Counted from the first letter of the stretch, positions 23,533 to 49,683 are shown. The stretch is DNA of 64,000 nt from Deltaproteobacteria bacterium (GCA_037441565.1 JBBIRW010000007.1:43297-107296); one strand, 5' to 3'. Notes: a model not told the origin generated them from the letters alone. Numbers and translations are program-made.

Positions 23533-24111
23533 CTACTTTAACCTTTCTTCAACAACATCCCAGTTTATATTTCTGAAAAATGCCTCAATGTAATCGGCCC
23601 TCTTTAATCCATAATCAATCATGAATGCATGCTCAAAGACATCCATTATGAGGATGGGATTACATCCTGCAGGATGAGAAACATCATGTTCGTTTATCCA
23701 GAAATTTATCAGCCTTCCATTTGCAGGATCCTGATAAAGGATCACCCAGCCAATGCCTCTCATTGTCCCGCATGATTTGAAATCTTTCTCCCACTGCTCA
23801 TAGCTTCCAAAATCCTCGGCAATCTTTCTTGCTATCCTGCTTTCCTTCTTTATTCCACCCTTGCCACCGAGATTTTCAAAGTAATATTCATGAAGCCTCA
23901 TCCCGTTAAACTCCCATCCCAGTCTCCTTTTTAGCTCCGCATATTCGGGAGTCCCTGCCTTTCCATCTCTCAACATACTGTTTAACGTATCGATTAATTT
24001 GTTTGTGTTTGTTACATAACCCTGATAAAGGGTGAAGTGATTTTTGAGCAGTGTTTCGCTGAATCCTTCAATACCTATAAGCTTGCTGTAATCTTTTGGA
24101 TTGTAGCTCAT
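23533..24111 (-). CDS. sod: superoxide dismutase, Fe/Mn family
   Basis: 192 aa; Fe/Mn-SOD fold motifs (HFTLYQGYV, GWVILYQD, DVFEHAFMIDY). Confidence 0.85.
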   Translation of the reverse strand: MSYNPKDYSKLIGIEGFSETLLKNHFTLYQGYVTNTNKLIDTLNSMLRDGKAGTPEYAELKRRLGWEFNGMRLHEYYFENLGGKGGIKKESRIARKIAEDFGSYEQWEKDFKSCGTMRGIGWVILYQDPANGRLINFWINEHDVSHPAGCNPILIMDVFEHAFMIDYGLKRADYIEAFFRNINWDVVEERLK

Positions 24112-24238
24112 AAGATCCTCCTTTTGATTCTTTGTTCTTTACTGAGCGATAGAAAATAAAAACTTAAGATAATTAATACCAATGGATCTCTCTAAATTCA
24201 ATACCTTCTCTTGAATTAATGAGTTTTAATGTAGGGGA

Positions 24239-24274
24239 AGGAGGGGTCCATATCTCTCTTAATGGATCCCTCCT
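24239..24274. repeat. inverted repeat, 13-bp arms with 10-nt loop
   Basis: AGGAGGGGTCCAT / ATGGATCCCTCCT (one G-U-compatible mismatch) lying 5-40 nt beyond the bacterioferritin-like stop and about 130 nt upstream of sod; no U-tract follows. Confidence 0.4.
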
Positions 24275-24279
24275 GCTGA

Positions 24280-24717
24280 TCATTGTTCTTCTGCGAAGGT
24301 CTTGATTTGAAGGATGGCGCTGAATTTATCATCATGCCCTTCTTCATCCATTATAATCTCTTCAAGAATCCTCCTCGTCACAGGGTCACCCGCTTCCTCT
24401 GCGAGCTTTAGATGTTCTTTGTACAGTTTTATTGCCATCCTTTCACCATCGATGTCATCTTTTATCATCTTTTTGAGATCACCACCAACTTTTATCTCCC
24501 CCGGTTTTGTAACGGGTGTTCCACCAAGATAGTTTATCCTCTCCGCGAGTTTCTCAGCATGTTTCATCTCGTCGATGGCAATCTTTCTAAACATCTCGGA
24601 AATTTCGGGGCTTTCCAAACCTTCTGCCATAACATGATGCCACATATATTGTGTTATAGCAGCAAGTTCAAGTGCGAGATCATCATTTAGTGCCTTTATA
24701 AGTTTTTCTTTTGACAT
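24280..24717 (-). CDS. bacterioferritin / ferritin-like diiron protein
   Basis: 145 aa from internal ATG at 24717 (MSKEKL...), which has an AAGGAGG site upstream; two ExxH diiron motifs (DEMKHAE, DEEGHDD). Confidence 0.75.
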   Translation of the reverse strand: MSKEKLIKALNDDLALELAAITQYMWHHVMAEGLESPEISEMFRKIAIDEMKHAEKLAERINYLGGTPVTKPGEIKVGGDLKKMIKDDIDGERMAIKLYKEHLKLAEEAGDPVTRRILEEIIMDEEGHDDKFSAILQIKTFAEEQ

Positions 24718-24835
24718 GGATACCTCCTTTCTTCCTGTATACAAATATATACTTCTGATAGAATACGCCACACATTATAGCAGGAGATATCCATATCATT
24801 CAATATCAATTTTTTATCTGCAACGAATCTCTCCC

Positions 24836-27426: not shown

Positions 27427-28236
27427 TTGGAGATGCGAATAGTATTTTTGCGAAGAATCTTTGCCTTCTTAGGAAAATATCTGCCCATAATAACTATTCT
27501 GTTAATCTCTTCCACATATCCGTTAAAGGCACATACAGATGCGATGGAAGAGAGGAAAGAGGTAATTATAGAGGATAGAACAGGTAAATTTATCCCTCTT
27601 GATCTGGATTTTACCGATGAGAATGGGAAGGTTGTTTCGATCAAGGAACTCTTTAAGAAGCCGGTGATACTTTCTCCTGTTTACTTCAGCTGTCCCAATG
27701 TTTGCAATCTCCTTCTTGAAGAGATTGCCCGTCTTATTGATAAGATGGAAGCAGAACCAGGAAGGGACTACTCCATAATAACATTTAGTTTTGATGAAAA
27801 TGATAAGCCGGAAAAGGCACTTGAAAAAAAGAGGATTTTTCAAAAGATCATCAAGAAAAAAATTCCTGATGATTCATGGAAATTCCTCACAGGAGATAGA
27901 GAATCAATTAAAAGACTCACCGATGCAATCGGGTTTAATTTCAAAAGAAAGGGCGATGAATTTATACATCCTGTTTCACTGGTTGTTCTTTCAAGTGACG
28001 GTAAGATTATCCGTTATGTTCCTGGAAAGGCACTCCTTCCATTCGATCTGAAAATGGCTATTGCGGAGGCATCTGAAGGAAGAACGGGGGCAACTATAAA
28101 TAAAGTGCTTCTTCTCTGCTACAGTTATGATCCCCAAGGCAGGAGATACGTGCTTAATATAACAAGGATTGGAGGTGTAATTATACTACTTTCACTTGCT
28201 GGATTCTCAATATTTCTTCTGAGAAACAGGAGTTAA
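27427..28236 (+). CDS. SCO1/SenC-family copper chaperone (thioredoxin-like, CxxxC)
   Basis: 269 aa; signal peptide, thioredoxin-like domain with CPNVC, conserved C-terminal YDPQGRRYV segment followed by a TM helix. Confidence 0.8.
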   Translation: MEMRIVFLRRIFAFLGKYLPIITILLISSTYPLKAHTDAMEERKEVIIEDRTGKFIPLDLDFTDENGKVVSIKELFKKPVILSPVYFSCPNVCNLLLEEIARLIDKMEAEPGRDYSIITFSFDENDKPEKALEKKRIFQKIIKKKIPDDSWKFLTGDRESIKRLTDAIGFNFKRKGDEFIHPVSLVVLSSDGKIIRYVPGKALLPFDLKMAIAEASEGRTGATINKVLLLCYSYDPQGRRYVLNITRIGGVIILLSLAGFSIFLLRNRS

Positions 28237-28238: not shown

Positions 28239-29858
28239 ATGACGCAGGGCTCTATTCTCCTGAAAACTCACACGATTAGCTTTCTTGAAGAAAAAGGGAG
28301 ATATAAAGGTATACTTTCCTGGATCATGTCAACGAACCATAAGAGGATAGGTCTACTCTACCTTCTCTCCATGCTTTCTTTCTTCATTATCGGTGTTATC
28401 CTCGGACTTCTTATGAGACTTGAGCTTATTGCGCCGGGAAGAACCATAATGGGTCCGCAGACGTATAATTCCATATTCACCCTTCATGGAGTTATAATGA
28501 TATTTTTATTTGTTATCCCTGGAATACCTGCTGCGTTCGGGAATTTCTTCCTTCCCATACACATAGGTGCAAGGGATGTATCATTCCCGAGAATAAATCT
28601 TCTGTCCTGGTACTTCTTCATAGGCGGAGCAACACTTGTTGTGATATCGCTTTTTACAGGTGGAGGGCCTATTGATACAGGATGGACGTTCTATGCTCCA
28701 TATAGCATAAGAACAGGAACAAATGTGTCCCTCGCTGTCCTGGGCGCTTTTTTAATCGGATTTTCCTCAATACTAACAGGGCTTAATTTTGTGACGACCA
28801 TACACAGATTGAGGGCACCTGGAATGGGGTGGTTCCGCATGCCACTTTTCGTATGGTCCCTTTATGCAACAGGCTGGGTCCAGCTTCTTGCAACACCTGT
28901 CGTTGGAATAACACTAATTCTTATCATATGTGAGAGATTTTTTGGTGTCGGTTTTTTCGATCCAGCAAAAGGGGGTGATCCTCTGTTGTTTCAGCATCTC
29001 TTCTGGATCTACTCACACCCTGCTGTTTACATAATGATCCTTCCTGCGATGGGTGTTATCTCAGAAATAATCCCTGTTTTCTCAAGGAAGAATATATTTG
29101 GATATAAGGCAATAGCATTCTCAAGTCTTTCCATAGCTCTCGTTGGATATCTTGTATGGGGACACCATATGTTCACAAGCGGTATGAGTGATACTGCAAA
29201 GTGGGTATTTTCCCTATTAACATTTCTCGTGGCAATACCAAGTGGAGTTAAAACATTCAACTGGGTTGCAACAATGTATGGAGGATCAATTGAAATTGCC
29301 CCTCCATTGCTATATGCGCTCTCGTTTATATTTGCATTTTCAATAGGCGGTTTAACAGGTCTTATAAATGGAGCAATTGCCACTGATATTCACATACATG
29401 ATACATATTTTGTTGTTGGTCATTTCCATTATACCATGTTTGGTGGAACTGCCTTTGCTTTTTTTGGTGCACTTCACTACTGGTTTCCTAAGATGTTTGG
29501 AAAGATGTATAGCATAAGACTTGCAAATATTGCCTGGCTCATCCTTTTTACAGGTTTTAATATTTTATACTTTCCCATGTTTATCCTTGGATGGGAGGGG
29601 ATGCCGAGGAGATATTATGACTATCTTCCAAGATTCCATATGCTTCATCTCATATCAACCATCGGCTCCTGGATCCTTGCAACTGGTCTTATCCTTATGT
29701 TTTACAATTTTCTACGTTCCCTGAAATATGGTGAAAGGGCAGAACATAACCCCTGGGGTGGAAGCACACTGGAATGGCAGATACAGTCCCCTCCACCCCC
29801 AGAGAACTTCGAGCATATACCTGCTGTCAGCGCAGGACCTTATGATTTCAAAAGGTGA
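28239..29858 (+). CDS. ctaD: cytochrome c oxidase subunit I (heme-copper oxidase, A-type)
   Basis: 539 aa; 12 TM; SHPAVYIMILP (His-Tyr region) and WGHHMF (CuB histidines). Confidence 0.9.
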   Translation: MTQGSILLKTHTISFLEEKGRYKGILSWIMSTNHKRIGLLYLLSMLSFFIIGVILGLLMRLELIAPGRTIMGPQTYNSIFTLHGVIMIFLFVIPGIPAAFGNFFLPIHIGARDVSFPRINLLSWYFFIGGATLVVISLFTGGGPIDTGWTFYAPYSIRTGTNVSLAVLGAFLIGFSSILTGLNFVTTIHRLRAPGMGWFRMPLFVWSLYATGWVQLLATPVVGITLILIICERFFGVGFFDPAKGGDPLLFQHLFWIYSHPAVYIMILPAMGVISEIIPVFSRKNIFGYKAIAFSSLSIALVGYLVWGHHMFTSGMSDTAKWVFSLLTFLVAIPSGVKTFNWVATMYGGSIEIAPPLLYALSFIFAFSIGGLTGLINGAIATDIHIHDTYFVVGHFHYTMFGGTAFAFFGALHYWFPKMFGKMYSIRLANIAWLILFTGFNILYFPMFILGWEGMPRRYYDYLPRFHMLHLISTIGSWILATGLILMFYNFLRSLKYGERAEHNPWGGSTLEWQIQSPPPPENFEHIPAVSAGPYDFKR

Positions 29859-30484
29859 TTTTCATGATTAGTATTACTTCTTTCTCTGTTGAAAAACACA
29901 CTGATTATACTGGTTCAAAGATCGGTATGTGGTTATTTCTATTCACAGAAATGCTTCTTTTTGGGGGTCTCTTTCTCATTTATTCCACATACAGGGCAAA
30001 GTATCCCATCTCCTTCCATGTTGCAGCAAAAGATCTTAACATACAGATAGGTACGCTAAATACAATACTTCTTCTTACAAGCAGTCTCACAATGGCTATA
30101 TCGATATTATCAATAAAAAATGGAAGTAGAAGAGGGTCTGCTTCCTTTCTCATGATTACTATCATTTTCGGACTTTTATTCCTTTTCAACAAATACTTTG
30201 AATGGGGAGAAAAGATTGCGCACGGTATCTATCCGGGATCAGAAGCACTCTCCGTTATAGATTCATCCATTGTCCTTTTTTACAATCTATACTTTGTTAT
30301 GACAGGGCTTCATGCCTTACATGTCCTTGCGGGGATCTTCGTGCTTTTCATAATGTTTGTTTTACTCCTTAAGAAAAATATAAACAGGCATGATTTTGTC
30401 AAACTTGAAAATACAGGGCTATACTGGCATTTTGTAGATATAATCTGGATATACCTCTTTCCCCTTTTTTATCTGATAACATGA
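29855..30484 (+). CDS. ctaE: cytochrome c oxidase subunit III
   Basis: 209 aa polytopic protein with subunit-III C-terminal motif (LYWHFVDIIWIYLF); 4-nt overlap with subunit I. Confidence 0.8.
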   Translation: MIFMISITSFSVEKHTDYTGSKIGMWLFLFTEMLLFGGLFLIYSTYRAKYPISFHVAAKDLNIQIGTLNTILLLTSSLTMAISILSIKNGSRRGSASFLMITIIFGLLFLFNKYFEWGEKIAHGIYPGSEALSVIDSSIVLFYNLYFVMTGLHALHVLAGIFVLFIMFVLLLKKNINRHDFVKLENTGLYWHFVDIIWIYLFPLFYLIT

Positions 30485-30774
30485 GGTTTGCTATGCAAAA
30501 CAAGAGAAATGAAGCAGGTTTTTTGACATATCTTTTTGTGTGGATATCTCTCATTGTTCTCACTGCATTTACAGTTACAGTCGCGGCTCTTAATCTCGGA
30601 AAAATTGCTGTTCTCACAGCGCTATCAATTGCATCATTCAAATCGTTGATGGTTCTTAACTTCTTTATGCATCTGAAATATGAGGATCGTCTATTCCATT
30701 TCATGCTCCTTCTCTCTGTTATTACCCTTTCGATAATTATAGGATTCACATTTTTTGACATCTCTTTCAGATAG
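30481..30774 (+). CDS. cytochrome c oxidase subunit IV (bacterial small subunit)
   Basis: 97 aa, three TM helices; position between subunits III and II; 4-nt overlap. Confidence 0.6.
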   Translation: MRFAMQNKRNEAGFLTYLFVWISLIVLTAFTVTVAALNLGKIAVLTALSIASFKSLMVLNFFMHLKYEDRLFHFMLLLSVITLSIIIGFTFFDISFR

Positions 30775-30782: not shown

Positions 30783-31391
30783 ATGGAAAATTTTGCAGAA
30801 AGAGTAGATAACACATTCTTCTACATAGCTGGTATCTCAGTTTTTCTTCTCTTTTCCATCACAGTTTTCATGATCTACTGTCTTATCAGGTTCAACAGAA
30901 GGAGAAATCCGATGCCCGCTGATATCTCGGAAAATCTCTACCTCGAGATAGCATGGACAATTATCCCGATAATCCTTGTACTGTCCATGTTCTATTATGG
31001 ATGGACAGGATACAGGGTTCTGGGTAAAATACCCGAAGGATCGATGGATGTAAATGTTACGGCACGCATGTGGTCATGGACATTCAGGTACGAAAATGGA
31101 AAAGAAAGCGACCAACTTTATGTGCCAGCTGGCAAGCCAGTAAAATTAACGATCACATCAATGGATGTAATCCACTCCCTATATATACCCGCCCTAAGAA
31201 TAAAACAGGATGCAGTCCCCGGTATGAAAACGCACCTCTGGTTTAAAGCAGACATAAAGGGAGAATACGATATATTATGTGCTGAGTACTGTGGTCTCAG
31301 GCACTCCTATATGCTATCAAAGCTTATTGTTATGCCTGAAGAGGATTTCGTAAAATGGTATGATGGCAGGGATATTAAAAAATTAAAATAG
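30783..31391 (+). CDS. ctaC: cytochrome c oxidase subunit II (CuA, no fused cytochrome c)
   Basis: 202 aa; two TM helices plus cupredoxin domain with CuA ligands (VIHSLYIP, CAEYCGLRHSYM). Confidence 0.85.
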   Translation: MENFAERVDNTFFYIAGISVFLLFSITVFMIYCLIRFNRRRNPMPADISENLYLEIAWTIIPIILVLSMFYYGWTGYRVLGKIPEGSMDVNVTARMWSWTFRYENGKESDQLYVPAGKPVKLTITSMDVIHSLYIPALRIKQDAVPGMKTHLWFKADIKGEYDILCAEYCGLRHSYMLSKLIVMPEEDFVKWYDGRDIKKLK

Positions 31392-31394: not shown

Positions 31395-32705
31395 TTGAAT
31401 TTCGATCTGCTTTTAGAATATAAAATCCTAATGATGCAGGATTATCTCGCTGTTATCAAAGCTGAACATATAGAAACGCTTCGATATATTTCGACAGTTG
31501 CATTTGTTATCTTCTACCCCTTCATATCCATTATTCTCGGATATTTGATCCTCTCCTTCCTTTTCCTTCTCAGGGGGAGGGGAACCAATCACTTCTCATC
31601 CGAACTAACTTCATCCATAATACATACCATTACAAAGAGCAAGGGTCTTCTGTTTCTTGCAGGACTGCTTCCACCACTTACTGCATCCCTCGTTTTTATT
31701 GAAACAGGTCTTATGGAGAATAAGCATCTCGTTAATCTCTCATTACTCTCCCATATCCTTCTCTTCATTTCATTCATGTTTCTTTATCTTTATCGATCAA
31801 CAATAAACTTTATTCGCACAAAACCCGCAATCACACTCCTGTCATCTATCTTTTCAATCCTGACACTGCTTTTTTCCCTTTATATCCTCTCGTCTGTTCT
31901 TTCATCAGTATCAAACAGAGAAAAGGCTAATCTATTTTTGAATGCCATTGATCCGCTTATATCATGGAATGCCGTTGTAAGATACCTGAGGATTATTGTT
32001 CTTGCGCTTTCATTTGCTTTTTCGACCTTTATAGTTTTTTTTAAATATTTTTATAAAAGTAAAACAGTGGATGATCCTTCCCTCAGAAATGCCATAATCT
32101 ATTCCTCACTCGTATTGCTTATCCTTATACCTCCGCTTTCCCTATGGTATATCTATACCCTCCCTGAGCCTTCCCTATCACCTTTTATATTTCTGTTATC
32201 AATAATCTTAACGATTGCATCCTCTATCATTATATGGCTCCTTTACAGCTGCCTTGATGGAATAAAATCGAAATACAAATATAGCATACTCATCCTTTTC
32301 ATATTGCAGTTTATGTTTATTTCAGGTATGGAATATATCGAAAGAGAAACATCACATAGAGAAAATACCATGTTATTATTATCAAAAGCACAGGTTGTTA
32401 AAGAAGGGATAAGGACTGAAAAGAAAAAAGTTGAGATGGATGAGAAGGCAACCCTTGAAAAGGGGGAGAAGGTTTTCAAAACGGTTTGCTCAGCCTGTCA
32501 CAGCTTCACTCAAAGGGTTGTTGGTCCTCCTTTAAATGCTGTTATTCCATCTTACAGGAATAAGGTTGATGAGCTAAAAAACTTCATAAAGAATCCTGTG
32601 AAAAAAGATCCCTCCTATCCTCCAATGCCGAATCTGGGACTTCCAGATGATGAAATAGAGGCTGTCTCATTATATCTCCTGAAGGAGATAGGAGAGAAAA
32701 AGTAG
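31395..32705 (+). CDS. polytopic membrane protein with C-terminal monoheme cytochrome c domain
   Basis: 436 aa; about 8-10 TM helices, then a soluble C-terminus with CSACH heme-binding motif and PPMP (likely Met ligand). Start uncertain. Confidence 0.6.
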   Translation: MNFDLLLEYKILMMQDYLAVIKAEHIETLRYISTVAFVIFYPFISIILGYLILSFLFLLRGRGTNHFSSELTSSIIHTITKSKGLLFLAGLLPPLTASLVFIETGLMENKHLVNLSLLSHILLFISFMFLYLYRSTINFIRTKPAITLLSSIFSILTLLFSLYILSSVLSSVSNREKANLFLNAIDPLISWNAVVRYLRIIVLALSFAFSTFIVFFKYFYKSKTVDDPSLRNAIIYSSLVLLILIPPLSLWYIYTLPEPSLSPFIFLLSIILTIASSIIIWLLYSCLDGIKSKYKYSILILFILQFMFISGMEYIERETSHRENTMLLLSKAQVVKEGIRTEKKKVEMDEKATLEKGEKVFKTVCSACHSFTQRVVGPPLNAVIPSYRNKVDELKNFIKNPVKKDPSYPPMPNLGLPDDEIEAVSLYLLKEIGEKK

Positions 32706-32714: not shown

Positions 32715-33227
32715 GTGAGAAGATCCCTTGTTCTTGCAACCATTTCATGCTATGCATCGATCTTCTCCATCATATTTTTATCAATAGGCTATTATAACTA
32801 TTACCATGATGGGCCACCCATTCAGCCCATCGCCTTCAGCCATCGTATACATGTTGCAAAGGTTGGCCTTCCCTGCAACTTTTGCCATGTTTATGCTGAT
32901 AAATCAAAAAATGCCGGAATCCCTCATATCCAGAAATGCATGGATTGTCACAGGGCTGTTGCTGTAGAAAAGCCTGAAATAAAGAAACTTACTTCATACT
33001 GGGAACAGCGTAAACCCATAGAATGGATCAAGATTTACAAACTTCCCGATCATGTTTATTTTTCACATAAGAGACATATAAAGAAGGGGGTAGAATGTTC
33101 ACAGTGCCATGGTGAAGTACAGGTCATGGACAGGGTAAGAAGGGTAAGAACTTTAAAGATGGGGTGGTGTGTGAGATGTCACAGGGTAAATGATGCACCA
33201 ACTGATTGTCTCACATGCCATAAATGA
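32715..33227 (+). CDS. actA: Alternative Complex III subunit ActA (pentaheme cytochrome c)
   Basis: 170 aa; N-terminal TM helix and five CxxCH motifs (CNFCH, CMDCH, CSQCH, CVRCH, CLTCH). Confidence 0.8.
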   Translation: MRRSLVLATISCYASIFSIIFLSIGYYNYYHDGPPIQPIAFSHRIHVAKVGLPCNFCHVYADKSKNAGIPHIQKCMDCHRAVAVEKPEIKKLTSYWEQRKPIEWIKIYKLPDHVYFSHKRHIKKGVECSQCHGEVQVMDRVRRVRTLKMGWCVRCHRVNDAPTDCLTCHK

Positions 33228-33239: not shown

Positions 33240-36056
33240 ATGAATAGAAGAAACTTCATGAAGTTCCTTGGCTTCATTACAGGATCAACATTTCTTTCAT
33301 CATGTGGCATTGACAAAGGTTTAAGAAAAATCATATCTTATGCCATACCACCAGAAAAGGAGATCATACCTGGTGAGCCATTATTTTTTAACACAACCTG
33401 CACAGAATGCCCTGCCCTCTGCGGGATTCAGGTTAAGGCATATGAAAAGATCTTTGATACGGAAAGGGGTATCTACCCTGTAAAGCTTGAAGGTATACCG
33501 GATCATCCCATCAATTATGGCACACTATGTATAAGGGGTCAGGCATCCATAACACGACTCTACAATCCCCATCGTATAAAAGATCCCTTAATTAAGGAAA
33601 GGGATGGAGTTTTCAGATCGATAAGCTGGGATCAAGCATTCCAGACCATAATTTCAGAAATCGAAAAACATAAAGCCGAGAAAAGATATAACTTCTTCAT
33701 TTCATCAAGAACAACGGGTTCCCTCTCATTACTTATTGATGAATTCTGTCACGAATTCAATATAAAGAGACTTCCGGAATTTGAAATATATAATTATTCT
33801 GCAATCAGAAAAGCAAACTCATTCCTTTTCGGAAAATATTCAATACCTCATTACAACATAAAGGACGCTGATTTTCTTTTAACAATGGGTGCTGATATTT
33901 TTGAGACTTTTATCAGTCCTGTTTCACACGCAGTTCAATTCTCTATTGCACGGAAAAACAATAATCTAAAGTGGTTTCATGTTGAACCACATCTTTCATT
34001 AACAGGAATATGTTCTGATAAAAGATTTACAATCAATCCTGGAACAGAAATATATCTTCTTATTTATATCCTGACTTCTATTCAAAAAAGAAAAATAAGC
34101 AGCAACATTCCTGCTTCAGTTGGTCAATTAATTCCCTCTCTGCCTTTGGATATTCTGAAAGAAAAAACAGGGCTAAAAGAGGAAGAAATCCTTCTCATAA
34201 GGGATGCTTATCTTAATTCAAAAAGACCCCTCATTATAACAGGTGGCGTCTCAACCAGAAGTGGCAGTGGATTCGAAGTGGCTGTTCTCTCAGGATTAAT
34301 CAATTGGGCTTCCGGATCTATCGGTAGCCTTGTTGATTTCAGCAGAGAAGAGAACTACTTAAGGGTAGGAACAATAGAGGAATTTGTTAATTTCCTTAAA
34401 ACAATTGATGAGAATAACACAGGTTTGCTCTTTCTCCTTAAAACAGATCCTGTTTCCATCTTTCCTCAGCATCTTGGAGTTAAAGAAAAACTCATCAGGG
34501 CGAGATTTAAGGTCTCCCTTTCGGACTCATTCAATGAGACAACAAAAATTTGTGATCTTATCCTCCCCCTTTCTCACTCTCTTGAATCGTGGGGAGATGC
34601 AAATCCAAGAAGAGGACTTGTTAATCTCATCCAGCCTGCAACAAAAACAATTTTCAATACAAAATCGCATGGTGACATAATTATCGAGATTATGAAAAGA
34701 AAGGGAAAAGTTGTTTCTGAAGATTTTAAATCCTTTGTTATGAGTAATTATCAGAAAAGATATGGAAAAGATTCATTAAATATGTTTATTGAAAAAGGCT
34801 TTCATGAAGAAAACCCCTCCCCTGTAAGGGTATCATTCAACGAAGAGAATGCGCAACTGTTCTTGAGGAAGCTCAAATATCCTGAAGCTATGAAAACTCC
34901 CCTTCTTATTCTTTCTCCTTCGTTGAGGTTTTTTGATGGAAGATCTTTTGATCTTGAACTCTTAAAAGAAATCCCGGATCCTTTAAGCACGATATCCTAT
35001 GGGAGCTGGATCTCCCTTTCAGAGGAGACAGCAAAAAAATTGAACATCTCAGAAAGGGATGAGCTCGAAATTACTAAGGACCGATGGTCTATAAGAGTTC
35101 CTGCAAAGATTCAGAAAGGTATAGGAAAGGATATATTTATCGTCCAGATCGGAGGACCGATAAATTATAGTGGCATGACCGATCCCAGAAGCGGTGAAAT
35201 CCTCTCATACATTGAAGGTATAAATATAAGAAAAACGGGAAAGAATGTTTCCATACCAATCCTTTCAGGCTCAATGTCACAGGAAGGAAGGGGTATAATA
35301 CCTTATCCCATACATAGAACTGAAAATAATAAAAAACACAAAGAGAGTTTATATCCTGAACATAAACATGAAAATTACCGATGGGCTATGACTATAGATC
35401 TCGATCTCTGTATAGGATGCTCGGCATGTGTTGCTGCATGTTATATTGAGAACAATGTTCCTATTGTAGGGATTGATGAACATCTCAAAGGAAGAGAGAT
35501 GTCCTGGATCAGGGTCGAGCCATTTTATGATGAAAAGGATGGAATAAGATTCCTGCTCATGCTATGCCAGCAATGTGATTATGCTCCGTGTGAACCTGTC
35601 TGCCCTGTTTATGCAACATATCATAATCCTGAAGGAATAAATGCACAGGTCTATAACAGATGTGTTGGAACAAGGTACTGCTCAAATAACTGTCCGTATA
35701 AGGTCAGAAGATTTAACTGGTATCCTCATGAATGGGAATTCCCAAGGGACAGGATGTTAAATCCTGAGGTATCAGTAAGACAGGCAGGCGTAATGGAAAA
35801 GTGCACATTCTGCATACAACGTATAAGAAGAGCACATGATATCGCAAAGGATGAAGGCAGGTCCATAAGGGATGGTGAAGTAATGCCTGCATGTGCCCAG
35901 ACATGCCCCACCCGTGCAATTACATTTGGTAATATTCTTGATAAGAATTCATCTGTATATAAGCTTTCAAAGTCCGACCGTTCATATCGCATCTTTGAGC
36001 AACTCGGAACAGAACCATCGATATATTATCTTGGAAAGAGGAGAGGAGATGAATAA
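33240..36056 (+). CDS. actB: Alternative Complex III subunit ActB (molybdopterin-oxidoreductase-like + FeS domains)
   Basis: 938 aa; twin-arginine signal (RRNFMKF), large molybdopterin-like domain, C-terminal 4Fe-4S ferredoxin domains (CIGCSACVAAC, CQQCDYAPCEPVCP). Confidence 0.85.
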   Translation: MNRRNFMKFLGFITGSTFLSSCGIDKGLRKIISYAIPPEKEIIPGEPLFFNTTCTECPALCGIQVKAYEKIFDTERGIYPVKLEGIPDHPINYGTLCIRGQASITRLYNPHRIKDPLIKERDGVFRSISWDQAFQTIISEIEKHKAEKRYNFFISSRTTGSLSLLIDEFCHEFNIKRLPEFEIYNYSAIRKANSFLFGKYSIPHYNIKDADFLLTMGADIFETFISPVSHAVQFSIARKNNNLKWFHVEPHLSLTGICSDKRFTINPGTEIYLLIYILTSIQKRKISSNIPASVGQLIPSLPLDILKEKTGLKEEEILLIRDAYLNSKRPLIITGGVSTRSGSGFEVAVLSGLINWASGSIGSLVDFSREENYLRVGTIEEFVNFLKTIDENNTGLLFLLKTDPVSIFPQHLGVKEKLIRARFKVSLSDSFNETTKICDLILPLSHSLESWGDANPRRGLVNLIQPATKTIFNTKSHGDIIIEIMKRKGKVVSEDFKSFVMSNYQKRYGKDSLNMFIEKGFHEENPSPVRVSFNEENAQLFLRKLKYPEAMKTPLLILSPSLRFFDGRSFDLELLKEIPDPLSTISYGSWISLSEETAKKLNISERDELEITKDRWSIRVPAKIQKGIGKDIFIVQIGGPINYSGMTDPRSGEILSYIEGINIRKTGKNVSIPILSGSMSQEGRGIIPYPIHRTENNKKHKESLYPEHKHENYRWAMTIDLDLCIGCSACVAACYIENNVPIVGIDEHLKGREMSWIRVEPFYDEKDGIRFLLMLCQQCDYAPCEPVCPVYATYHNPEGINAQVYNRCVGTRYCSNNCPYKVRRFNWYPHEWEFPRDRMLNPEVSVRQAGVMEKCTFCIQRIRRAHDIAKDEGRSIRDGEVMPACAQTCPTRAITFGNILDKNSSVYKLSKSDRSYRIFEQLGTEPSIYYLGKRRGDE

Positions 36057-37814: not shown

Positions 37815-38811
37815 CCATTACTTCTTATATCTCTTTATTGGTGGATTTTTTATTGTTGCTGTTGAGTTTTTTGCAGGAATAACAAAGGGTTCACTTCTCT
37901 TCACTCTTTCGTATTGGATTGCCATCACTCATGGCTGCATTGCACTTGTTACAGCAGCTAATATTGCAAAGGCTAAATGGATAACTCCACTAAAGAGATA
38001 CCTTCTTTCCGTTTACCCGTTGCTATTGCTTCACTCAATCCTTTTTCTTTTTGTTACTTATGAGCTGGATATATATCCATGGGTTAAAAGTGAAGGATTA
38101 TGGTTAAACAGGCCATTCTTTATAGCAAGAAACTTCTTCCTGCTCTTTCTTTCCTTTTTATCTGCACGAAAATTCTCCAAGGAATCATTAATTGATAGTG
38201 AAAGAAAAAACATCTATGGCTCAATTTATATCGCATTCTTTGTTGCATCACAATCAATGATTGCATTCGACTGGATAATGTCTCTCGAATATCCCTGGTA
38301 CAGCACACTCTTTGGAGGTTATTTTTTCATTGAATCCATATACTCCGGTATTGCAATTTCAGGGATTGTATGTCTATTTCTTATGAGAAAAACTGGGAGC
38401 CAAATCAGTGAAGACCTGGTCAAGACTTTGAGGGATATTGCTACACTAATTTTCGGGTTCAGCTTACTCTGGGCAGGGCTTTTCTATGCGCAGTTCCTTG
38501 TTATCTGGTATGGAAACATTCCTGAGGAGGTAAGCTTTCTGTTTGTAAGGACTAAATTATCACCTTACCGGGAAATCTCGCTTGTTATACTCCCCTCACT
38601 ATTCTTCTTCCCCTTTCTAACACTCCTTTCAAGAAAGACAAAAACGATCCCATTGATCGTCTCAATTATATCGGTATCGATACTTATGGGTATATTTCTT
38701 GAAAGACTGCTATTCCTCCTTCCATCCGTTAAGCTAAATCCTGTAAAGGTAATCTCTCAATCAATCATTATGGCAGCACTGATTATTCTAACGATCAAGA
38801 GAAATAATTAG
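37777..38811 (+). CDS. actF: Alternative Complex III subunit ActF-like polytopic membrane protein
   Basis: 344 aa, about 9 TM helices, immediately after actD; assigned by position and topology only. Confidence 0.55.
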   Translation: MMEKMMEKGMRINHYFLYLFIGGFFIVAVEFFAGITKGSLLFTLSYWIAITHGCIALVTAANIAKAKWITPLKRYLLSVYPLLLLHSILFLFVTYELDIYPWVKSEGLWLNRPFFIARNFFLLFLSFLSARKFSKESLIDSERKNIYGSIYIAFFVASQSMIAFDWIMSLEYPWYSTLFGGYFFIESIYSGIAISGIVCLFLMRKTGSQISEDLVKTLRDIATLIFGFSLLWAGLFYAQFLVIWYGNIPEEVSFLFVRTKLSPYREISLVILPSLFFFPFLTLLSRKTKTIPLIVSIISVSILMGIFLERLLFLLPSVKLNPVKVISQSIIMAALIILTIKRNN

Positions 38812-43611: not shown

Positions 43612-44692
43612 TCAAGCATCCCTATTTTCTGGTATATTAGTGAGTATGATAGTGATAGATGGAAGCTATGGTGAAGGTGGAGGGCAGATCCTGAGAACCG
43701 CACTCAGTATCTCCTGTATAACAGGAAAACCCTTCAGAATATTTAACATAAGGAAGGGGAGGGAAAAACCAGGCCTCATGCCTCAGCATCTCGCCTCCAT
43801 AATGGCAGCAAGGGAGATCTCTGATGCAGATATTGAAGGAGCTTTCATAGGCTCAACAGAACTGATCTTTTCACCCCGAAGGATAAAGGCAGGAGAGTAC
43901 TCATTTAATATAGGTACCGCTGGATCAACAATACTGCTTCTTCAGACCCTCATACCTCCTCTTATCTTTGCTGGAGATCTATCAAGGATCTTAATAAAGG
44001 GCGGAACGCATGTGCCTTTCAGTCCCATTTACGATTATACGGAGAAAGTGTTTGCAGAGTTCTTAAACATGTTAGGAATCAGGATCAGTTTAAGGATCAG
44101 ATCATACGGCTTCTACCCTAAAGGAGGTGGTTCAATAGAGGCTGAAATATATCCTGTAGAGTCGATCTTACCAATAGAGATTCTCGAGAAGGGGAGGTTA
44201 AAAAGGATCGGAGGCTGTTCATCCGTTGCCAATCTCCCCATATCCATTGCAGAGAGACAGCGCACATCCGCTATTAAATATATGAAAGAAAGACTCGGTG
44301 ATGAAGTTCCCATTCATCTTGAAACTATGAATGTTCCAACCCCATCTGAGGGAACATTTCTATTCCTCAAGTGCGAATTTGATCTTTCTATTGCAGGTTT
44401 CTCTTCCCTTGGAAGGAGGGGAAAGAGTGCGGAAAAGGTCGGTGAGGAAGCTGCCTCAGGGCTGATATCATTTCTCAGAACTGATGGTGCAATTGATCCC
44501 CATCTTGCTGACCAGATAGTTCTCTATCTCTCAATGGCCTCAGCTCCATCCCGATTCACTGTATCCTCCATAACGGATCACCTGTTAACGAATCTCTACA
44601 CAATAAGGCATTTCTTTAAAATTAGATACTCCGTTAATGGAGAAAAGGGAGGAGTTGGCCTGATTGAAATAAATCCTGTTCTTCAAAATTAA
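43604..44692 (+). CDS. rtcA: RNA 3'-terminal phosphate cyclase RtcA
   Basis: 362 aa ORF; RtcA N-terminal motif ([19 protein letters not shown]); start may be the internal ATG near 43646. Confidence 0.8.
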
Positions 44693-45582
44693 AGATCGAT
44701 CAGCATGGAGAGGAATATCAATGAGAGATAAACTATCGAATATCTGAAAAGCGTCCTGTCAATTTTCTTTCCTGACAGTTTCATAAAAAAGATAACAAAA
44801 TATATTACATTGAGAAGAATAGAAACCCAGAGGTAAAATGATCCGCAAAATTCTAAAACGAATGGAAGTATGCTTGCCATTGAAAGAAGAACAAGATAGA
44901 TTAACATTAATTCTGATGTCTTCCTTTCGGATATAGCAGGCATTACAGGTATTCCTGCTTTTATATAATCATCTCTGTAGAGACTTGCAAATGACCAGAA
45001 GTGAAGAGGTTGCCAGATCAGGATAATCAGGAATAAAACAAACGCCTCAGCATCAATACCGTTCTTAACCGCAGCGCATCCTATAAGCGGTGGAAGGGCT
45101 CCCGCAATACCGCCAATCTCAGTAGCATGCGGAGTTTTTCTTTTTAGAAATCTTGTATAGAGAAAATAGTAGATGAATGCACCGATCATGGATAGAAATG
45201 CTGACAGTAAATTCACAAAAATGGATAGAAAAATGAATGATAGAATTATGAGAAGCATGCCGAATTTTGTTGCACTCCTTATATCAATTCTTCCGAGAGG
45301 TATTGGCCTGTTTTTTGTCCTTTCCATAACTGCATCTATATCTGCATCATAGCAGTTGTTTAATATTGTTGAGCCGGAGCAGCAAAGTGCAAGACCGGTT
45401 AATGTCCAGAACAGGAGCGATGTATTTATCGCCCCCTTTGATGCAATCCATATACTGGAAAAGGCTGTAATGAGCATAAGGAGTGTTATGCCAGGACCTG
45501 TTACTGAAATATAGTCCCGGAAAACACCCCTTCCAATGCTTTGAGAAACAATAACCCTACTTCTTAGCCCTTCCGTATTCAT
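44689..45582 (-). CDS. ctaB: protoheme IX farnesyltransferase (heme O synthase, UbiA family)
   Basis: UbiA-type polytopic protein with Asp-rich motif (NCYDADIDAVMERTKNRP); start set at internal ATG 45582 to limit overlap with coxI. Confidence 0.8.
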   Translation of the reverse strand: MNTEGLRSRVIVSQSIGRGVFRDYISVTGPGITLLMLITAFSSIWIASKGAINTSLLFWTLTGLALCCSGSTILNNCYDADIDAVMERTKNRPIPLGRIDIRSATKFGMLLIILSFIFLSIFVNLLSAFLSMIGAFIYYFLYTRFLKRKTPHATEIGGIAGALPPLIGCAAVKNGIDAEAFVLFLIILIWQPLHFWSFASLYRDDYIKAGIPVMPAISERKTSELMLIYLVLLSMASILPFVLEFCGSFYLWVSILLNVIYFVIFFMKLSGKKIDRTLFRYSIVYLSLIFLSMLIDL

Positions 45583-47134
45583 AAGGTCCTGATGTAACAA
45601 CAGGTATCCTTTCGAAATTATAACATGGCGGTGGGGAAGGAATCGTCCATTCAAGCGATAGTGCATTCCATGGATTATCAGACGCCTTTTCCCCCACAAA
45701 CGCTGAACGAACAACATTGAAAACGGAAAGCAGGAAACCAGCTATCAGTATATACCCTCCGATAACTGTTACCCTGAATAGCACAGTAAACTCTGGAGGA
45801 TAGCTCCAGTACCTCCTCGGCATGCCCATGAGTCCCAGCTGGAAAAGGGGTATGAAAGCGAAAAGGGAACCGATCATGATCAGCCAGAATGAAAGCCTTG
45901 CCATGCGCTCATTATACATGCGCCCTGTGAATTTTGGAAACCAGAAATAAATACCCGCAAAAGCCACAGATGTCATGGCAAGTGATAGAACCATATGGAA
46001 ATGGGCAACAACCCAGTATGTATCATGAACATGGAGGTCAATTGCAATAAGCCCATTTCCAACGCCCGTAACACCGCCGATAACAAAAAGACTTATAAAA
46101 CCTATCACATAGAGCATAGGCGCCCTGAATTCTATTGCTCCCCTATGCATCGTTCCAAGCCAGTTGAATACCTTTATACCCGTTGGAACAGCAATGAGTA
46201 TTGTAAGCATCGATTGCATGATCCTTGCCCAATCCTCTACACCTTTTGTGAATAGATGATGAATCCATACGGAAAACCCGAGGATGGTAATTGACATAAT
46301 TGCAATGACCATACTCCTGTATCCAAATATCTTTTTCCTTGAAAAGGTTGATACAATTTCCGATACAATTCCAAATGCAGGAAGCGCAACAACATAAACA
46401 GCAGGGTGTCCGTAAAACCAGAATAGATGCTGATAAAGCATCGGAGATCCACCCATTGAAGGATTATAGAAATTTGTTCCCAAGTATCGATCAAAAAGAA
46501 GGAGTGTTACAGCTCCCGCAAGAACAGGTATTCCAAAAAGCTGAATTATAAAAGCACTGAGCATCCCCCATATAGCGAGATTGAGTCTTCCCCATGTCAT
46601 ACCTGGTGCCCTCATACAGATTATAGTTGTTATAAAGTTCACAGCAGATGCGAGGGCAGATCCACCGAGAAGATGAACGGAGAAAACATAAAGCGAAGTA
46701 TTCGCATCCGTGATTATTGAATACGGTGGATAACCTGTCCAGCCGATATCGATCCTTCCAGGTGTTACGAGTGCAAGAACTGCCATAACCGTTGCACCTG
46801 CAAAAAGCCAGTAGCTCAGGGCATTGAGCCTTGGAAATGCAACATCCTTTGCACCTATCATAAGCGGGATAAGGAGATTGGCAAAGAAACCTGTAAAAAC
46901 TGGAATCATCCACCATAAAATCATTGCTGCTCCATGAATTGTGAAGAATACATTGTATGTTTTTGCACCTATTATATCCATTCCTGGGGACCACTGTTCT
47001 GCCTTAATAAAGATGGCAAGGATAAGTCCGAGCACAAAAGCAGTAAGACTTGTTATAAGATAGAGAACTGCAATCCTTTTATGGTCTGTTGTAAATATCC
47101 ATTCCTTTATACTAAAGCCCTTTTTTTCTGACAT
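45557..47134 (-). CDS. ctaD: cytochrome c oxidase subunit I (second copy)
   Basis: 525 aa; GHPAVYVVALP and WIHHLF motifs; 12 TM. Confidence 0.9.
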   Translation of the reverse strand: MSEKKGFSIKEWIFTTDHKRIAVLYLITSLTAFVLGLILAIFIKAEQWSPGMDIIGAKTYNVFFTIHGAAMILWWMIPVFTGFFANLLIPLMIGAKDVAFPRLNALSYWLFAGATVMAVLALVTPGRIDIGWTGYPPYSIITDANTSLYVFSVHLLGGSALASAVNFITTIICMRAPGMTWGRLNLAIWGMLSAFIIQLFGIPVLAGAVTLLLFDRYLGTNFYNPSMGGSPMLYQHLFWFYGHPAVYVVALPAFGIVSEIVSTFSRKKIFGYRSMVIAIMSITILGFSVWIHHLFTKGVEDWARIMQSMLTILIAVPTGIKVFNWLGTMHRGAIEFRAPMLYVIGFISLFVIGGVTGVGNGLIAIDLHVHDTYWVVAHFHMVLSLAMTSVAFAGIYFWFPKFTGRMYNERMARLSFWLIMIGSLFAFIPLFQLGLMGMPRRYWSYPPEFTVLFRVTVIGGYILIAGFLLSVFNVVRSAFVGEKASDNPWNALSLEWTIPSPPPCYNFERIPVVTSGPYEYGRAKK

Positions 47135-47150
47135 ATAAAATCACCTCCAG

Positions 47151-48926
47151 TTATTTCAGCGATTTAAGATATGCGATTATGGAATATATCTGTCTTTCGG
47201 AAAGCCTGTATGGTGGCATTGCTGCAGGATAACCTTTAACAATCTTCTCTGAGGGATAAAGTATTGAGTGTTCTATATACTCCTCATCAACCTTCATGCT
47301 TCCACCATCCTCGAACCTTGTTTCCCTCCCAAATATTCCTTTAAATGTTGGACCTGTTGATTCCTCCCCCGTAACTGTGTGACATCCCAGACATCCCAGG
47401 ATCTCAACAAGCCTCCTTCCCTCATTGATATCGGGTAAAGCTTCTCCCTCACTCTTCGCCTTTGATATCCATGCATTGAAATCCTCCCTCTTCATTGCTA
47501 TCACCTTTGCAATCATCATAGAATGACCATTTCCGCAGAACTCCGTGCAGAATGCCCTGTATAATCCTGGCTTTTCCGCATTAAACCACAGATACGTTAT
47601 CCTTCCCGGAATTGCTTCCTCCTGAATATGGAAATCTGGAAGGAAAAATCCATGAAGCACATCCCTGCTTGTAAGGCTGATCCTTACAGGAATTCCGGCA
47701 GGAATAACAATCTCATTTACCCCTTTTATTCCTTCAGGGTAGGTAACATTCCATCCCCACATGAACCCCTCGACGCTGATCTCATATGCATTGGATGGAA
47801 CACCTCTGAATTTCTGATAAATACTCCATGTCTGGATCCCTAAGAAAATAACAATCACAAGAGGAATAACAGTCCATATAATTTCAACAAGTGAATTCCC
47901 CTCAATGTAATCCCCTTCTTCCCTTCCTCTTCCCTTTCTGTAACGGATGCAAATATAAATTAACGGAATCGTTACAACTAACCAGACGGCGAACATAAGT
48001 ATAAGATAGATACCGAAGTGCTGATCCCACAGCCTCGATGGATTGCTTGCATCAGATGCGAGTGCATCTTTTCCGGAAATGAAAGTTATGAAAGGGATCA
48101 GTAGCAGTAACTCTGATCTCCTTTTCTTTACATAAATAACAATGGAGAGCAACCCGGTAATAACCCCCATAAAAATTCCAGCTGCAATAAAAAGAAGCGG
48201 AATGTTTATCACATATGTTCGTGATCCTGGATCGTATTTATAGCATGCAAATGTAATCATGCTCGCTATCGAAACACTTCCAGAAATCCCCTTCATTGAT
48301 TCAAGTATTGCTAACCGAACGTTGAATGGATCAGGTTTTGATCCATAAAGATATCTTGTTATCCTTCCTTCGGGAGAGATAAATATGTAAACAGATGGAT
48401 GTACAAACATTCCATCTTGAATTGAATAGAAGAACCGATATCCCGTGCTCTCGACCAGCTTATTTATATTTTCATCTGTCGTTGTTGCAAATTTCCATTG
48501 ATTAAATACTTCTGATCTCTTTTTATTAAAAACTCTTTCATAGAATTCTAATGCTTTTGATGGTGTATCCTTGCTGTTAAAGCTCAAAATAAGAACATGG
48601 TAATCTTTTCCATTTTTTAAATCCCTTATCTCATTCAATGCATCAAAAAGTCCCTCAACAAGAAGCGGGCAGATATGTGGACAATCATAATAAACAAGCG
48701 TAAGGATCAGGACTTTGCCCTTGAATTGCGAAATAGAAAATTCTTTCCTGCTTTTATCCGTAAAAGTTATTTCTGCAACGGATCTTCCGAGATGTTTTTC
48801 TTCTTCTATCTTTAAAATCGCCGGATTGAAATCCGAGGTTGATATAGTAGGAATCTTTGCCTCTAAATCAGCATTAAATGAAAGTATAAAGAAGATCAAA
48901 ATAACCAATCTTCCAATCGATACCAT
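47151..48926 (-). CDS. SCO1/SenC domain fused to cytochrome c oxidase subunit II with C-terminal cytochrome c domain
   Basis: 591-aa single frame: signal peptide, SCO1-like thioredoxin domain (CPHICP, YDPGSRTYV + TM), two CoxII TM helices, cupredoxin domain with CuA site (FCTEFCGNGHSMM), C-terminal heme c motif CLGCH. Confidence 0.8.
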   Translation of the reverse strand: MVSIGRLVILIFFILSFNADLEAKIPTISTSDFNPAILKIEEEKHLGRSVAEITFTDKSRKEFSISQFKGKVLILTLVYYDCPHICPLLVEGLFDALNEIRDLKNGKDYHVLILSFNSKDTPSKALEFYERVFNKKRSEVFNQWKFATTTDENINKLVESTGYRFFYSIQDGMFVHPSVYIFISPEGRITRYLYGSKPDPFNVRLAILESMKGISGSVSIASMITFACYKYDPGSRTYVINIPLLFIAAGIFMGVITGLLSIVIYVKKRRSELLLLIPFITFISGKDALASDASNPSRLWDQHFGIYLILMFAVWLVVTIPLIYICIRYRKGRGREEGDYIEGNSLVEIIWTVIPLVIVIFLGIQTWSIYQKFRGVPSNAYEISVEGFMWGWNVTYPEGIKGVNEIVIPAGIPVRISLTSRDVLHGFFLPDFHIQEEAIPGRITYLWFNAEKPGLYRAFCTEFCGNGHSMMIAKVIAMKREDFNAWISKAKSEGEALPDINEGRRLVEILGCLGCHTVTGEESTGPTFKGIFGRETRFEDGGSMKVDEEYIEHSILYPSEKIVKGYPAAMPPYRLSERQIYSIIAYLKSLK

Positions 48927-48939
48927 TTTTTCCTCCTCA

Positions 48940-49683
48940 TCAAGCTTTTAGAAAGCTATACGGGAGGATATAAACCAATGAAAGAATGAGAAGCCATAGA
49001 CCATCAACAAAATGCCAGTAGTATCCGCAAATCCTTACAACACTTCTACGAATTCCTCCAGCTCCTTTTCTAATTGAAAGAAGCAGAATATAAAGCTGAA
49101 ACAAAACACCCACAAGAACATGGGAGCCGTGAAGACCTGTTATCAGATAAAAATATGTTCCGTAGGAGTTACTTGTAATAGTTAATCCTTCAGATATAAG
49201 CCTGCTCCATTCCCTTGCCTGTCCCATAAGAAAAAGAAGGCCAAGCACAATTGTCAAGGAAAGCCATTGCTTCATGTATTTCCTTTCAGCCATCTGAATT
49301 GTTACACTCGAGGAAATAAGAATGACTGTCAGGATCATTGCAAAACCAAGTGGTGGAATGTCTGCTGGTATTCCTGGAGATATCCATTCCCCTTTGGGAA
49401 GCATGCTGTATAAGTATGCGCTTAAAACTCCGCTAAAGAGTGCGATCTCAGATAGGATAAAAACCACCATTGCCGTAGTGCTGATCCTTTCTTCTGAATC
49501 CGATTCGAATACCTCGGATACCCATCCTGTGAGGCTTATGATTGTGCCCGCAGCACCCAGACAGGCTGTAAAAAGGCCTCCGACAGGAATCTTCCACTGA
49601 AATGAGATCATAAAACCCATCATGATGAGGAATGATGAAAAAGCTGTAAAAAATGGCCAGATGCTTACAAATTGAGTATGCAT
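48940..49683 (-). CDS. ctaE: cytochrome c oxidase subunit III (second copy)
   Basis: 247 aa polytopic protein; subunit-III C-terminal pattern (GLHGSHVLVGV, YYWHFVDGLWLL). Confidence 0.75.
   Translation of the reverse strand: MHTQFVSIWPFFTAFSSFLIMMGFMISFQWKIPVGGLFTACLGAAGTIISLTGWVSEVFESDSEERISTTAMVVFILSEIALFSGVLSAYLYSMLPKGEWISPGIPADIPPLGFAMILTVILISSSVTIQMAERKYMKQWLSLTIVLGLLFLMGQAREWSRLISEGLTITSNSYGTYFYLITGLHGSHVLVGVLFQLYILLLSIRKGAGGIRRSVVRICGYYWHFVDGLWLLILSLVYILPYSFLKA

Follow-up and report, generated by a model that had tools for sequence, protein, structure and literature searches.

Why does one stretch of DNA hold two complete A-type oxygen reductases beside enzymes typical of anaerobes, and what would the oxidases do there? 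The question is raised by positions 23,533 to 49,683 of a 64,000-nucleotide stretch from a Deltaproteobacteria bacterium (GCA_037441565.1 JBBIRW010000007.1:43297-107296; the whole stretch is called the window below), in which two sets of heme-copper oxidase genes lie near genes for POR, AOR and ADP-forming acetyl-CoA synthetase. We put at roughly 0.75 the probability that both sets encode intact A2 cytochrome c oxidases, that oxidase 1 is wired to Alternative Complex III (ACIII), that oxidase 2 is of the caa3 type, and that their use of O2 is compatible with POR/AOR metabolism.

The window is part of the metagenomic contig Logan SRR11582170_9373 (82.8 kb). About 74 kb was inspected in all, comprising the 64-kb window and 10 kb of upstream flank on the same contig. 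Genes were called by listing open reading frames (ORFs) and scanning them with Pfam and NCBIfam profile models, and gene content, residues, operon compaction, homology and synteny were established here. Since the ORFs are long and the E-values range from 1e-16 to 1e-168, chance matching is not an issue. The G+C content is about 0.38 to 0.46 all along the window. The window proteins also occur on the NCBI contig JBBIIB010000009.1 of a metagenome-assembled genome (MAG; GCA_037446715.1), and the proteins of a sister MAG, GCA_964505185.1, are about 90% identical to those of the window. A promoter and terminator scan gave 49 hits, against 51 expected from shuffled sequence, and was not used.

As the first-pass annotation had claimed, both sets of oxidase genes (subunits I, II and III) are complete, each with a Sco-type domain (PF02630 matches in both) and one with heme O synthase; all of the genes that it had named were found where it had placed them, with strong profile matches. 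Set 1, on the + strand, begins with a Sco-like copper chaperone (27433..28236; PF02630, E 5.9e-10; sequence and hydropathy), which carries a CxxxC motif (CPNVC) plus a His, a CYxYDP motif and a transmembrane (TM) helix at its C-terminus. It continues with the A2 catalytic subunit CoxI_1 (28239..29858; PF00115, E 5e-153; TIGR02891 at 685 bits, above cutoff; 2YEV_A as top PDB match), CoxIII_1 (29864..30484; PF00510, 4.5e-19), the caa3-type subunit IV CoxIV_1 (30493..30774; PF03626, 3.4e-12; TIGR02229 above cutoff) and CoxII_1 (30783..31391; PF00116 and PF02790; TIGR02866 above cutoff). Set 2, on the - strand, consists of CoxIII_2 (48940..49683; PF00510, 3.7e-22), a Sco-like/CoxII/cytochrome c fusion of 591 amino acids (aa) (47151..48926; PF02630, PF02790, PF00116 and PF00034; TIGR02866 above cutoff), the A2-like catalytic subunit CoxI_2 (45557..47134; PF00115, E 1.3e-148; 2YEV_A alignment and residue table) and CtaB, the heme O synthase (44689..45582; PF01040; TIGR01473 at 277 bits, above the cutoff of 210), which is the sole copy in the window.

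The CuA ligand set (H, C-x-E-x-C, H, M) is complete in both CoxII proteins, as H...CAEYCGLRHSYM in CoxII_1 and as CTEFCGNGHSMM plus an upstream His in the fusion, so that both enzymes are cytochrome c oxidases and not quinol oxidases. CoxII_1 lacks a heme c domain; the fused cytochrome c domain on subunit II, a caa3-type feature, is found in set 2 only, with one CxxCH at residue 512. Oxidase 2 is thus predicted to be of the caa3 type, carrying heme c on its subunit II.

We then analyzed the catalytic subunits in a three-way alignment of CoxI_1, CoxI_2 and 2YEV_A, the A2 caa3 enzyme of Thermus, using the list of D- and K-channel features in PMC3084760. 2YEV_A is the best PDB match of both CoxI, end to end, at an E-value of about 1e-135, and the A-type assignment of the first-pass annotation stands, as both CoxI align end to end with A-type subunit I structures. 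The six His ligands (two to the low-spin heme, one to the high-spin heme and three to CuB) are kept in both, as H83, H397, H395, H260, H309 and H310 in CoxI_1 and H67, H380, H378, H243, H292 and H293 in CoxI_2. The cross-link Tyr of helix VI (HPxVY motif) is present by sequence as Y264 and Y247, respectively. The channel residues are D113, N102 and N120 (D) and K338 and S335 (K) in CoxI_1, and D97, N86 and N104 (D) and K321 and T318 (K) in CoxI_2. Both subunits have an Ala at the position of the A1 glutamate, and a Tyr (Y258 in CoxI_1, Y241 in CoxI_2), two positions upstream of the CuB His, stands at the position of Thermus Y248. Because members of the A2 subfamily are recognized by the absence of the helix VI Glu of A1 and by a Tyr as its functional replacement (PMC3084760), both CoxI belong to A2. 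The first-pass annotation had proposed to classify the two subunits by their proton-channel residues; the D and K channels are intact, and both subunits are A2 and not A1.

The two subunits differ in helix VI. The motif of CoxI_1, WIYSHPAVY, has the canonical Tyr-Ser pair and is the same in 78 of 81 CoxI matches of related loci. In CoxI_2 the motif is WFYGHPAVY, with the Tyr kept and the Ser replaced by Gly. All of the approximately 30 closest CoxI_2 relatives (P0001-P0031, at least 60% identity) have Y[A/G]HP, while farther ones have Tyr-Ser; a literature search on Tyr-Gly or Tyr-Ala variants of A2 enzymes found nothing in the library covered. One of these relatives, P0031, is a partial CoxI with 91% identity to CoxI_2; at NCBI it is labeled 'Candidatus Aenigmatarchaeota archaeon', and it probably comes from a mis-binned bacterial contig. 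Since CoxI_1 and CoxI_2 are only 46% identical, they are old paralogues or separate acquisitions and not the products of a recent duplication. As judged from their sequences, the two oxidases are intact and of different ancestry. The caa3 oxidase of Thermus thermophilus (2YEV) resembles both in being an A2 enzyme with Tyr248-Ser249 in place of the A1 Glu, and resembles set 2 also in carrying heme c on subunit II. It differs in that it fuses subunits I and III, which are separate genes in the window, in having Ser249 where CoxI_2 has Gly, and in that Sco is fused to CoxII in the window.

Set 1 does not end with CoxII_1. The same operon goes on with an 8-TM membrane protein of 424 aa with a C-terminal monoheme cytochrome c (31431..32705, + strand; one CxxCH) and with five genes of ACIII on the + strand: ActA, a pentaheme cytochrome c (32715..33227; PF14522; 5 CxxCH counted), ActB, a fusion of molybdopterin-oxidoreductase-like and 4Fe-4S parts (33240..36056; PF00384, PF04879, PF12838 and PF13247) that carries a twin-arginine signal (NRRNFMK), ActC, the NrfD-like quinol-interacting membrane subunit (36049..37362; PF03916, 2.6e-26; gene call), ActD, with no fused ActE cytochrome domain (37359..37814; PF11821, 4.9e-36), and ActF, a 339-aa membrane protein without a Pfam match (37792..38811). 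The subunits ActA, ActB, ActC, ActD and ActF are thus all present between 32715 and 38811. The monoheme cytochrome c ActE, separate or fused to ActD, was found nowhere among the Pfam matches and gene calls of the window; in its place the 8-TM monoheme cytochrome c lies directly upstream of ActA. Operon 1 has 11 genes, with intergenic gaps of -23 to +39 nt, and Sco, oxidase, cytochrome c and ACIII appear to form one co-transcribed unit. The first-pass annotation overlooked the ACIII genes that follow set 1, as well as the A2 class of the oxidases. With ACIII linked to it, set 1 is to be read no longer as an isolated oxidase but as a complete quinol:O2 respiratory branch.

From this arrangement we infer the following electron path. 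NADH or another donor would reduce menaquinone, and the quinol would be oxidized at ActC/ActF. Electrons would then pass through the Fe-S clusters of ActB and the five hemes of ActA to the cytochrome domain of the 8-TM protein, which would take the place of the absent ActE as well as of the heme c that CoxII lacks, and from there to CuA, the low-spin heme, the heme-CuB site and O2, with proton uptake through the intact D and K channels.

Relatives of set 1 were collected with CoxI_1 as the query and one genome per species; of about 600 matching stretches the best 80 were kept, and synteny among these loci was compared by tblastn. The order Sco-CoxI-III-IV-II(-CtaB) next to ACIII occurs in dozens of genomes, at CoxI identities of 63-73%, from Ignavibacteria (including Melioribacter roseus), Bacteroidota, Acidobacteriota, Geobacteraceae, Desulfuromonadales and others, and a Sco-like gene holds the equivalent position in 77 of the 80 loci. 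ACIII lies upstream of the oxidase in most loci and downstream, as in the window, in a minority (L005, L006, L013, L022, L031 and L041); ActC is up to 62-70% identical in L006, L013 and L041. In M. roseus, ACIII is encoded by Mros0045-0040 and the oxidase by Mros0039-0033; both the sequences and the arrangement of these genes are described as resembling those of Desulfovibrionales and Desulfuromonadales (PMC3534657). M. roseus and the window share Sco, CoxI (A2, YSHP), CoxIII, CoxIV, a heme-c-less CoxII of about 200 aa, the 8-TM cytochrome c and ACIII, and CoxI_1 is 68% identical to the CoxI of an M. roseus MAG. M. roseus, a facultative anaerobe, also has POR, as the window does (PMC3534657). 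However, its ACIII lies upstream of the oxidase, its ActD is fused to an ActE cytochrome and its CtaB follows CoxII, whereas in the window the oxidase comes first and the set 1 cluster has neither ActE nor CtaB.

The place given to the 8-TM protein in this path rests on its distribution. A family hidden Markov model places its gene immediately downstream of CtaB in 36 of the 80 loci, and it is present in 29 of 31 loci with a heme-c-less CoxII versus 7 of 32 loci with a heme-c CoxII (Fisher p 4e-9, a value that ignores kinship). As it tracks with the heme-c-less CoxII, its cytochrome domain is read as the entry of electrons to CuA, and the protein is probably the electron-entry cytochrome between ACIII and oxidase 1. 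Full-length homologues are annotated merely as 'c-type cytochrome'; the family forms 537 clusters at 50% identity in a library of 1.84 billion proteins, and the best 150 representative matches listed for the window protein are all family members. At the equivalent position of M. roseus, Mros0033 was called a soluble c551/c552 (PMC3534657), and an 'ActE with eight transmembrane segments' was described in Pelobacter carbinolicus (PMC3543383). The ACIII-aa3 supercomplex of Flavobacterium johnsoniae (PDB 6BTM; PMC8552683) has ActE where the window ACIII has the 8-TM cytochrome c, and in Flavobacterium ActE is dispensable for transfer from ACIII to aa3 (PMC8552683). The idea that the 8-TM protein might be a heme A synthase in disguise was also considered and rejected, as the family has no conserved His set and its fold resembles that of cytochrome bd and not that of CtaA.

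The membrane domain of the 8-TM protein has a cytochrome-bd-like (CydA-type) fold; the protein might itself be a third, cytochrome-bd-related oxygen reductase rather than an electron carrier alone. In architecture it matches the OR-C family (Murali, Gennis and Hemp; bioRxiv 10.1101/2021.01.16.426971), which likewise has eight TM helices, no Q-loop, a C-terminal heme c and the cytochrome bd fold, and in the window protein TM1 begins with a His and TM3 ends with a Tyr-x-Tyr. However, the similarity to CydA that a reductase of this kind should retain was not detected: no Pfam cytochrome bd model matched the protein even at an E-value of 0.1, and hhalign against E. coli CydA was negative. The TM1 His, at the position of the conserved His19 of OR-C, is kept in only 90 of 127 family members and is N or Q in 31; equivalents of Glu99 and Glu107, the proton-channel glutamates of OR-C1a, and other heme ligands are not conserved in the family, and a second CydA-like partner gene, as in the OR-C1a/b pairs, is absent. 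None of Melioribacter, Ignavibacterium and Pelobacter appears among the OR-C members listed in the Murali supplement. A catalytic role for this bd-like fold is thus unlikely, and an OR-C-like reductase would be a very improbable reading of it. The bd-like fold and the distribution of the 8-TM cytochrome c are the most interesting by-product of the analysis.

Which heme the two oxidases carry is bound up with their synthases. In nearly all relatives of set 1 a CtaB gene comes after CoxII; in set 1 it is missing, and the gap from CoxII to the next gene is only 39 nt; the single CtaB of set 2 must therefore serve both oxidases, and would supply heme O to both enzymes. With one CtaB present, heme O can presumably be made. 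The first-pass annotation had reported that no CtaA gene lies in the window, and indeed no ORF matches COX15/CtaA (PF02628) in the window or in the 10 kb upstream on the same contig. If ctaA is absent from the rest of the genome as well, both enzymes would be of the o3 type, namely (b/o)o3 and c(b/o)o3, which agrees with the name cc(o/b)o3 of the Desulfovibrio enzyme.

The alternative is that ctaA does lie elsewhere, so that the clusters encode ordinary heme A enzymes, paralogues of the usual aa3 and caa3 types. Genes for heme A synthase often lie apart from the cox genes (in Caldithrix, cox15 and ctaB are separated; PMC5317091), and the DNA inspected is only about 74 kb of a genome. Still, CtaA is missing from both related loci of set 2 as well as from the window and its flank, three relatives of set 1 have the 8-TM cytochrome c gene, not CtaA, next after CtaB, and the characterized relative of set 1, as quoted in PMC5492636, was named cc(o/b)o3 and described as unusual in its heme content. 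We regard heme A in these enzymes as possible but rather less likely than heme O. A residue that might have told the two apart was set aside. CoxI_1 keeps an Arg corresponding to the one close to the heme a formyl group of heme A enzymes, but the same position is Lys in the closest CoxI_2 relatives; as the residue varies within the clade, it is uninformative as a predictor of heme type.

A bolder combination joins the 8-TM protein and the hemes. The protein could be an unrecognised bd-fold subunit that couples ActE-less ACIII to heme-c-less A2 oxidases, or that binds extra hemes or reduces O2; in a genome without ctaA, this would make a heme-A-free supercomplex of new composition, and the CoxI_2 clade could, separately, be a distinct proton-gating variant of A2. 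Taken jointly, these proposals are improbable and are offered as speculation.

Set 2 has relatives of a different kind. The nearest named relatives of CoxI_2 are those of the magnetotactic Nitrospirota Ca. Magnetoovum, Magnetominusculus and Magnetomonas (62-65% identity), followed by Aquificaceae at about 50%; oxidases of the aa3 and cbb3 types have already been reported from magnetotactic Nitrospirota (PMC10278575). Two related loci of this type (L090 and L091) have the order (Rrf2-)CoxIII, a 275-279-aa protein, CoxII-c and CoxI(-CtaB), where the unannotated 275-279-aa protein is a Sco-like domain. Magnetotactic Nitrospirota thus share with set 2 the order CoxIII, Sco-like, CoxII-c, CoxI and the Y[A/G]HP motif. 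The CoxI_2 relatives and this synteny weakly suggest that the lineage of the window is itself allied to Nitrospirota. In contrast to the window, Sco-like and CoxII are separate genes in these loci, and an extra gene of the CcoN/COX1 family lies just downstream in both (a full cbb3 operon in L091), with nothing comparable in the window. The halves of the fusion match the separate genes at 51% (Sco part) and 54% (CoxII part) identity. The 591-aa fusion is also present in the locus of the sister MAG (L084), at 89.5% identity, and is therefore not an assembly error. It keeps the hydrophobic, signal-peptide-like segment of CoxII internally (LLLLIPFITFISGKDALA before SDAS), which would keep the topology of the fusion consistent and may permit cleavage.

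Directly upstream of set 2 lies an Rrf2-family regulator (49737..50138, - strand; PF02082, 5.8e-36) with three C-terminal Cys residues spaced C-x7-C-x5-C. An Rrf2 gene holds the same position in the related metagenomic contig L091 (3547-3909). The Cys motif and the position suggest Fe-S based control by redox state, NO or O2, and oxidase 2 would probably be controlled by this redox-sensing regulator.

On the other side of set 1, an operon on the - strand, encoding DoxX (26909-27310; PF07681), a type II NADH dehydrogenase (NDH-2)-like flavoprotein (25650-26909; PF07992 and PF22366 NDH2_C) and a 57-aa rubredoxin (25480-25653; gene call and translation), diverges from the cox-ACIII operon, and the flavoprotein and DoxX are candidates for the quinone-reducing input. 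Beyond it, also on the - strand and by Pfam, lie the genes that with rubredoxin make up the oxidative-stress group: hemerythrin (24836-25399), a ferritin-like protein (24280-24771) and Fe/Mn superoxide dismutase (23533-24111). The anaerobe-type genes, likewise identified by Pfam, are AOR (13344-15149, - strand), an ADP-forming acetyl-CoA synthetase architecture (10099-12090) and the four subunits of POR (50326-53303, + strand). POR, AOR, ADP-forming acetyl-CoA synthetase, rubredoxin, hemerythrin, superoxide dismutase and the ferritin-like protein, all listed by the first-pass annotation, are therefore present by Pfam and gene calls.

Gene content alone fits either energy-conserving microaerobic respiration or protective O2 scavenging, and the oxidase pair would consume O2 by one, the other or both. 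Under one alternative, both oxidases would only scavenge O2, in a strict anaerobe that does not grow on O2, to shield POR, AOR and other sensitive enzymes. The oxidase operon lies back to back with the genes for superoxide dismutase, the ferritin-like protein, hemerythrin and rubredoxin, and the remainder of the window is of anaerobe-type metabolism. The set 1 family includes the enzyme of D. vulgaris Hildenborough (Lamrabet 2011 and Ramel 2013, cited in PMC5492636 and PMC5317091), an A2 oxidase amid anaerobic metabolism. PMC5492636, in quoting this work, describes the cc(o/b)o3 enzyme as proton-translocating and gives it the task of detoxifying O2 in a strict anaerobe; PMC5317091 quotes a detoxifying role as well. 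Set 1 is likened to it by description: the two belong to the same cox family and share their gene order (PMC3534657), and the M. roseus CoxI is 66% identical to it (PMC5492636). The 'cc' in the name stands for c-type heme, of which CoxII_1 has none and CoxII_2 has one.

On the other hand, operon 1 encodes a full quinol:O2 chain, ACIII plus a channel-complete oxidase, which exceeds the needs of scavenging, and the quoted description of the D. vulgaris enzyme itself as proton-translocating points the same way. M. roseus respires O2 with this module (PMC5492636, PMC3534657): the same module supports its aerobic growth, and its ACIII and cox proteins are induced in aerobic respiration (PMC5492636). 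Scavenging and energy conservation are not mutually exclusive, and we consider scavenging as the sole role the less likely reading, although a tenable one. O2 consumption is compatible with the O2-sensitive metabolism of POR and AOR under either. The proposal of the first-pass annotation, O2 respiration or detoxification alongside ferredoxin-type metabolism, is a reasonable one that fits cultured precedents, although it is not a new idea.

Several observations weigh against the main reading given here. CoxI_2 falls below the NCBIfam equivalog cutoff (632.6 versus 670.75), and it lacks the Ser of the canonical Tyr-Ser pair, which makes proton pumping by oxidase 2 less certain. The loci with the 8-TM gene are mostly Ignavibacteria-like and those without it mostly Bacteroidales- or Geobacter-like, and the association with heme-c-less CoxII was not corrected for phylogeny. 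Caldithrix abyssi does not respire O2 although it has a cluster of ACIII and cox genes (PMC5317091), and the presence of the genes is thus no proof of function.

As was argued for Caldithrix abyssi, one or both clusters could be non-functional relics of horizontal transfer. The score of CoxI_2, the loss from set 1 of the CtaB that its relatives keep, and the patchy distribution of set 1-type clusters across phyla, which suggests lateral transfer (PMC3534657), are in keeping with this. However, all ORFs are full length with every ligand intact, the genes are tightly packed, CtaB is available in set 2, and the gene set together with the 591-aa fusion is kept in the sister MAG at about 90% protein identity, which implies purifying selection. 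We give relics only a very small chance. The intact proton channels, the joining of set 1 to ACIII, the adjacent NDH-2-like gene, the Rrf2 gene upstream of set 2 and an arrangement kept in two MAG lineages argue instead for functional and regulated enzymes. The heme type, the regulation and the physiological role proposed here, like the electron path, are our interpretation of the gene content.

The surroundings of the anaerobe-type genes contain further redox proteins. AOR is flanked on the - strand by a 4Fe-4S protein (15146-15628) and by a FAD/NAD(P) oxidoreductase with a rubredoxin-reductase-type C-terminal domain (12100-13347). We take this trio to resemble the three-subunit AorABC type of Aromatoleum, coupling to NAD+ rather than only to ferredoxin; if it is AorABC-like, AOR would be a weaker marker of strict anaerobiosis than assumed. 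The POR genes are followed on the + strand by a NuoE-like gene (53308-53781), a NuoF-like gene (53785-55635) and a 2Fe-2S/4Fe-4S gene resembling the N-terminal part of NuoG (55651-56370), and POR and the Nuo-like genes may form a ferredoxin/NAD(H)-linked module.

The two oxidase sets are separated by an RNA-repair cluster (38825-44692) with RtcA (43646-44692, + strand) and RtcB (42109-43566, - strand). RtcB works with GTP and Mn2+, and archease activates it. The cluster also encodes a CobW-type GTPase metallochaperone fused to archease (40735-42048, - strand) and an Nramp-type metal transporter that carries a fused universal stress protein domain (38825-40708, - strand); the joining of CobW to archease and the Nramp next to it could be signs of a dedicated supply of metal. 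Elsewhere in the window, a receiver, a PAS domain and a eukaryotic-type Ser/Thr kinase are fused in one 560-aa protein (6759-8441, - strand).

Both oxidase sets belong to described families, and their mixture with anaerobe-type enzymes is documented in Melioribacter, Desulfovibrio and magnetotactic Nitrospirota. The oxidase-first order with an ActE-less ACIII, a set 1 that has lost CtaB, the joining of Sco to CoxII and the Tyr-Gly motif are local variations and not a new system. The corrected annotation, which assigns both oxidases to A2, ties ACIII to set 1 and recognizes ActF, is of modest practical value. The 8-TM cytochrome c is widespread and unannotated, and merits biochemical study in a tractable organism, for example M. 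roseus. For the biology of the organism, the window adds one more uncultured lineage that joins ferredoxin-type anaerobic enzymes with proton-pumping A-type oxidases, and supports the view that 'anaerobe' genomes commonly retain O2-consuming respiratory branches.

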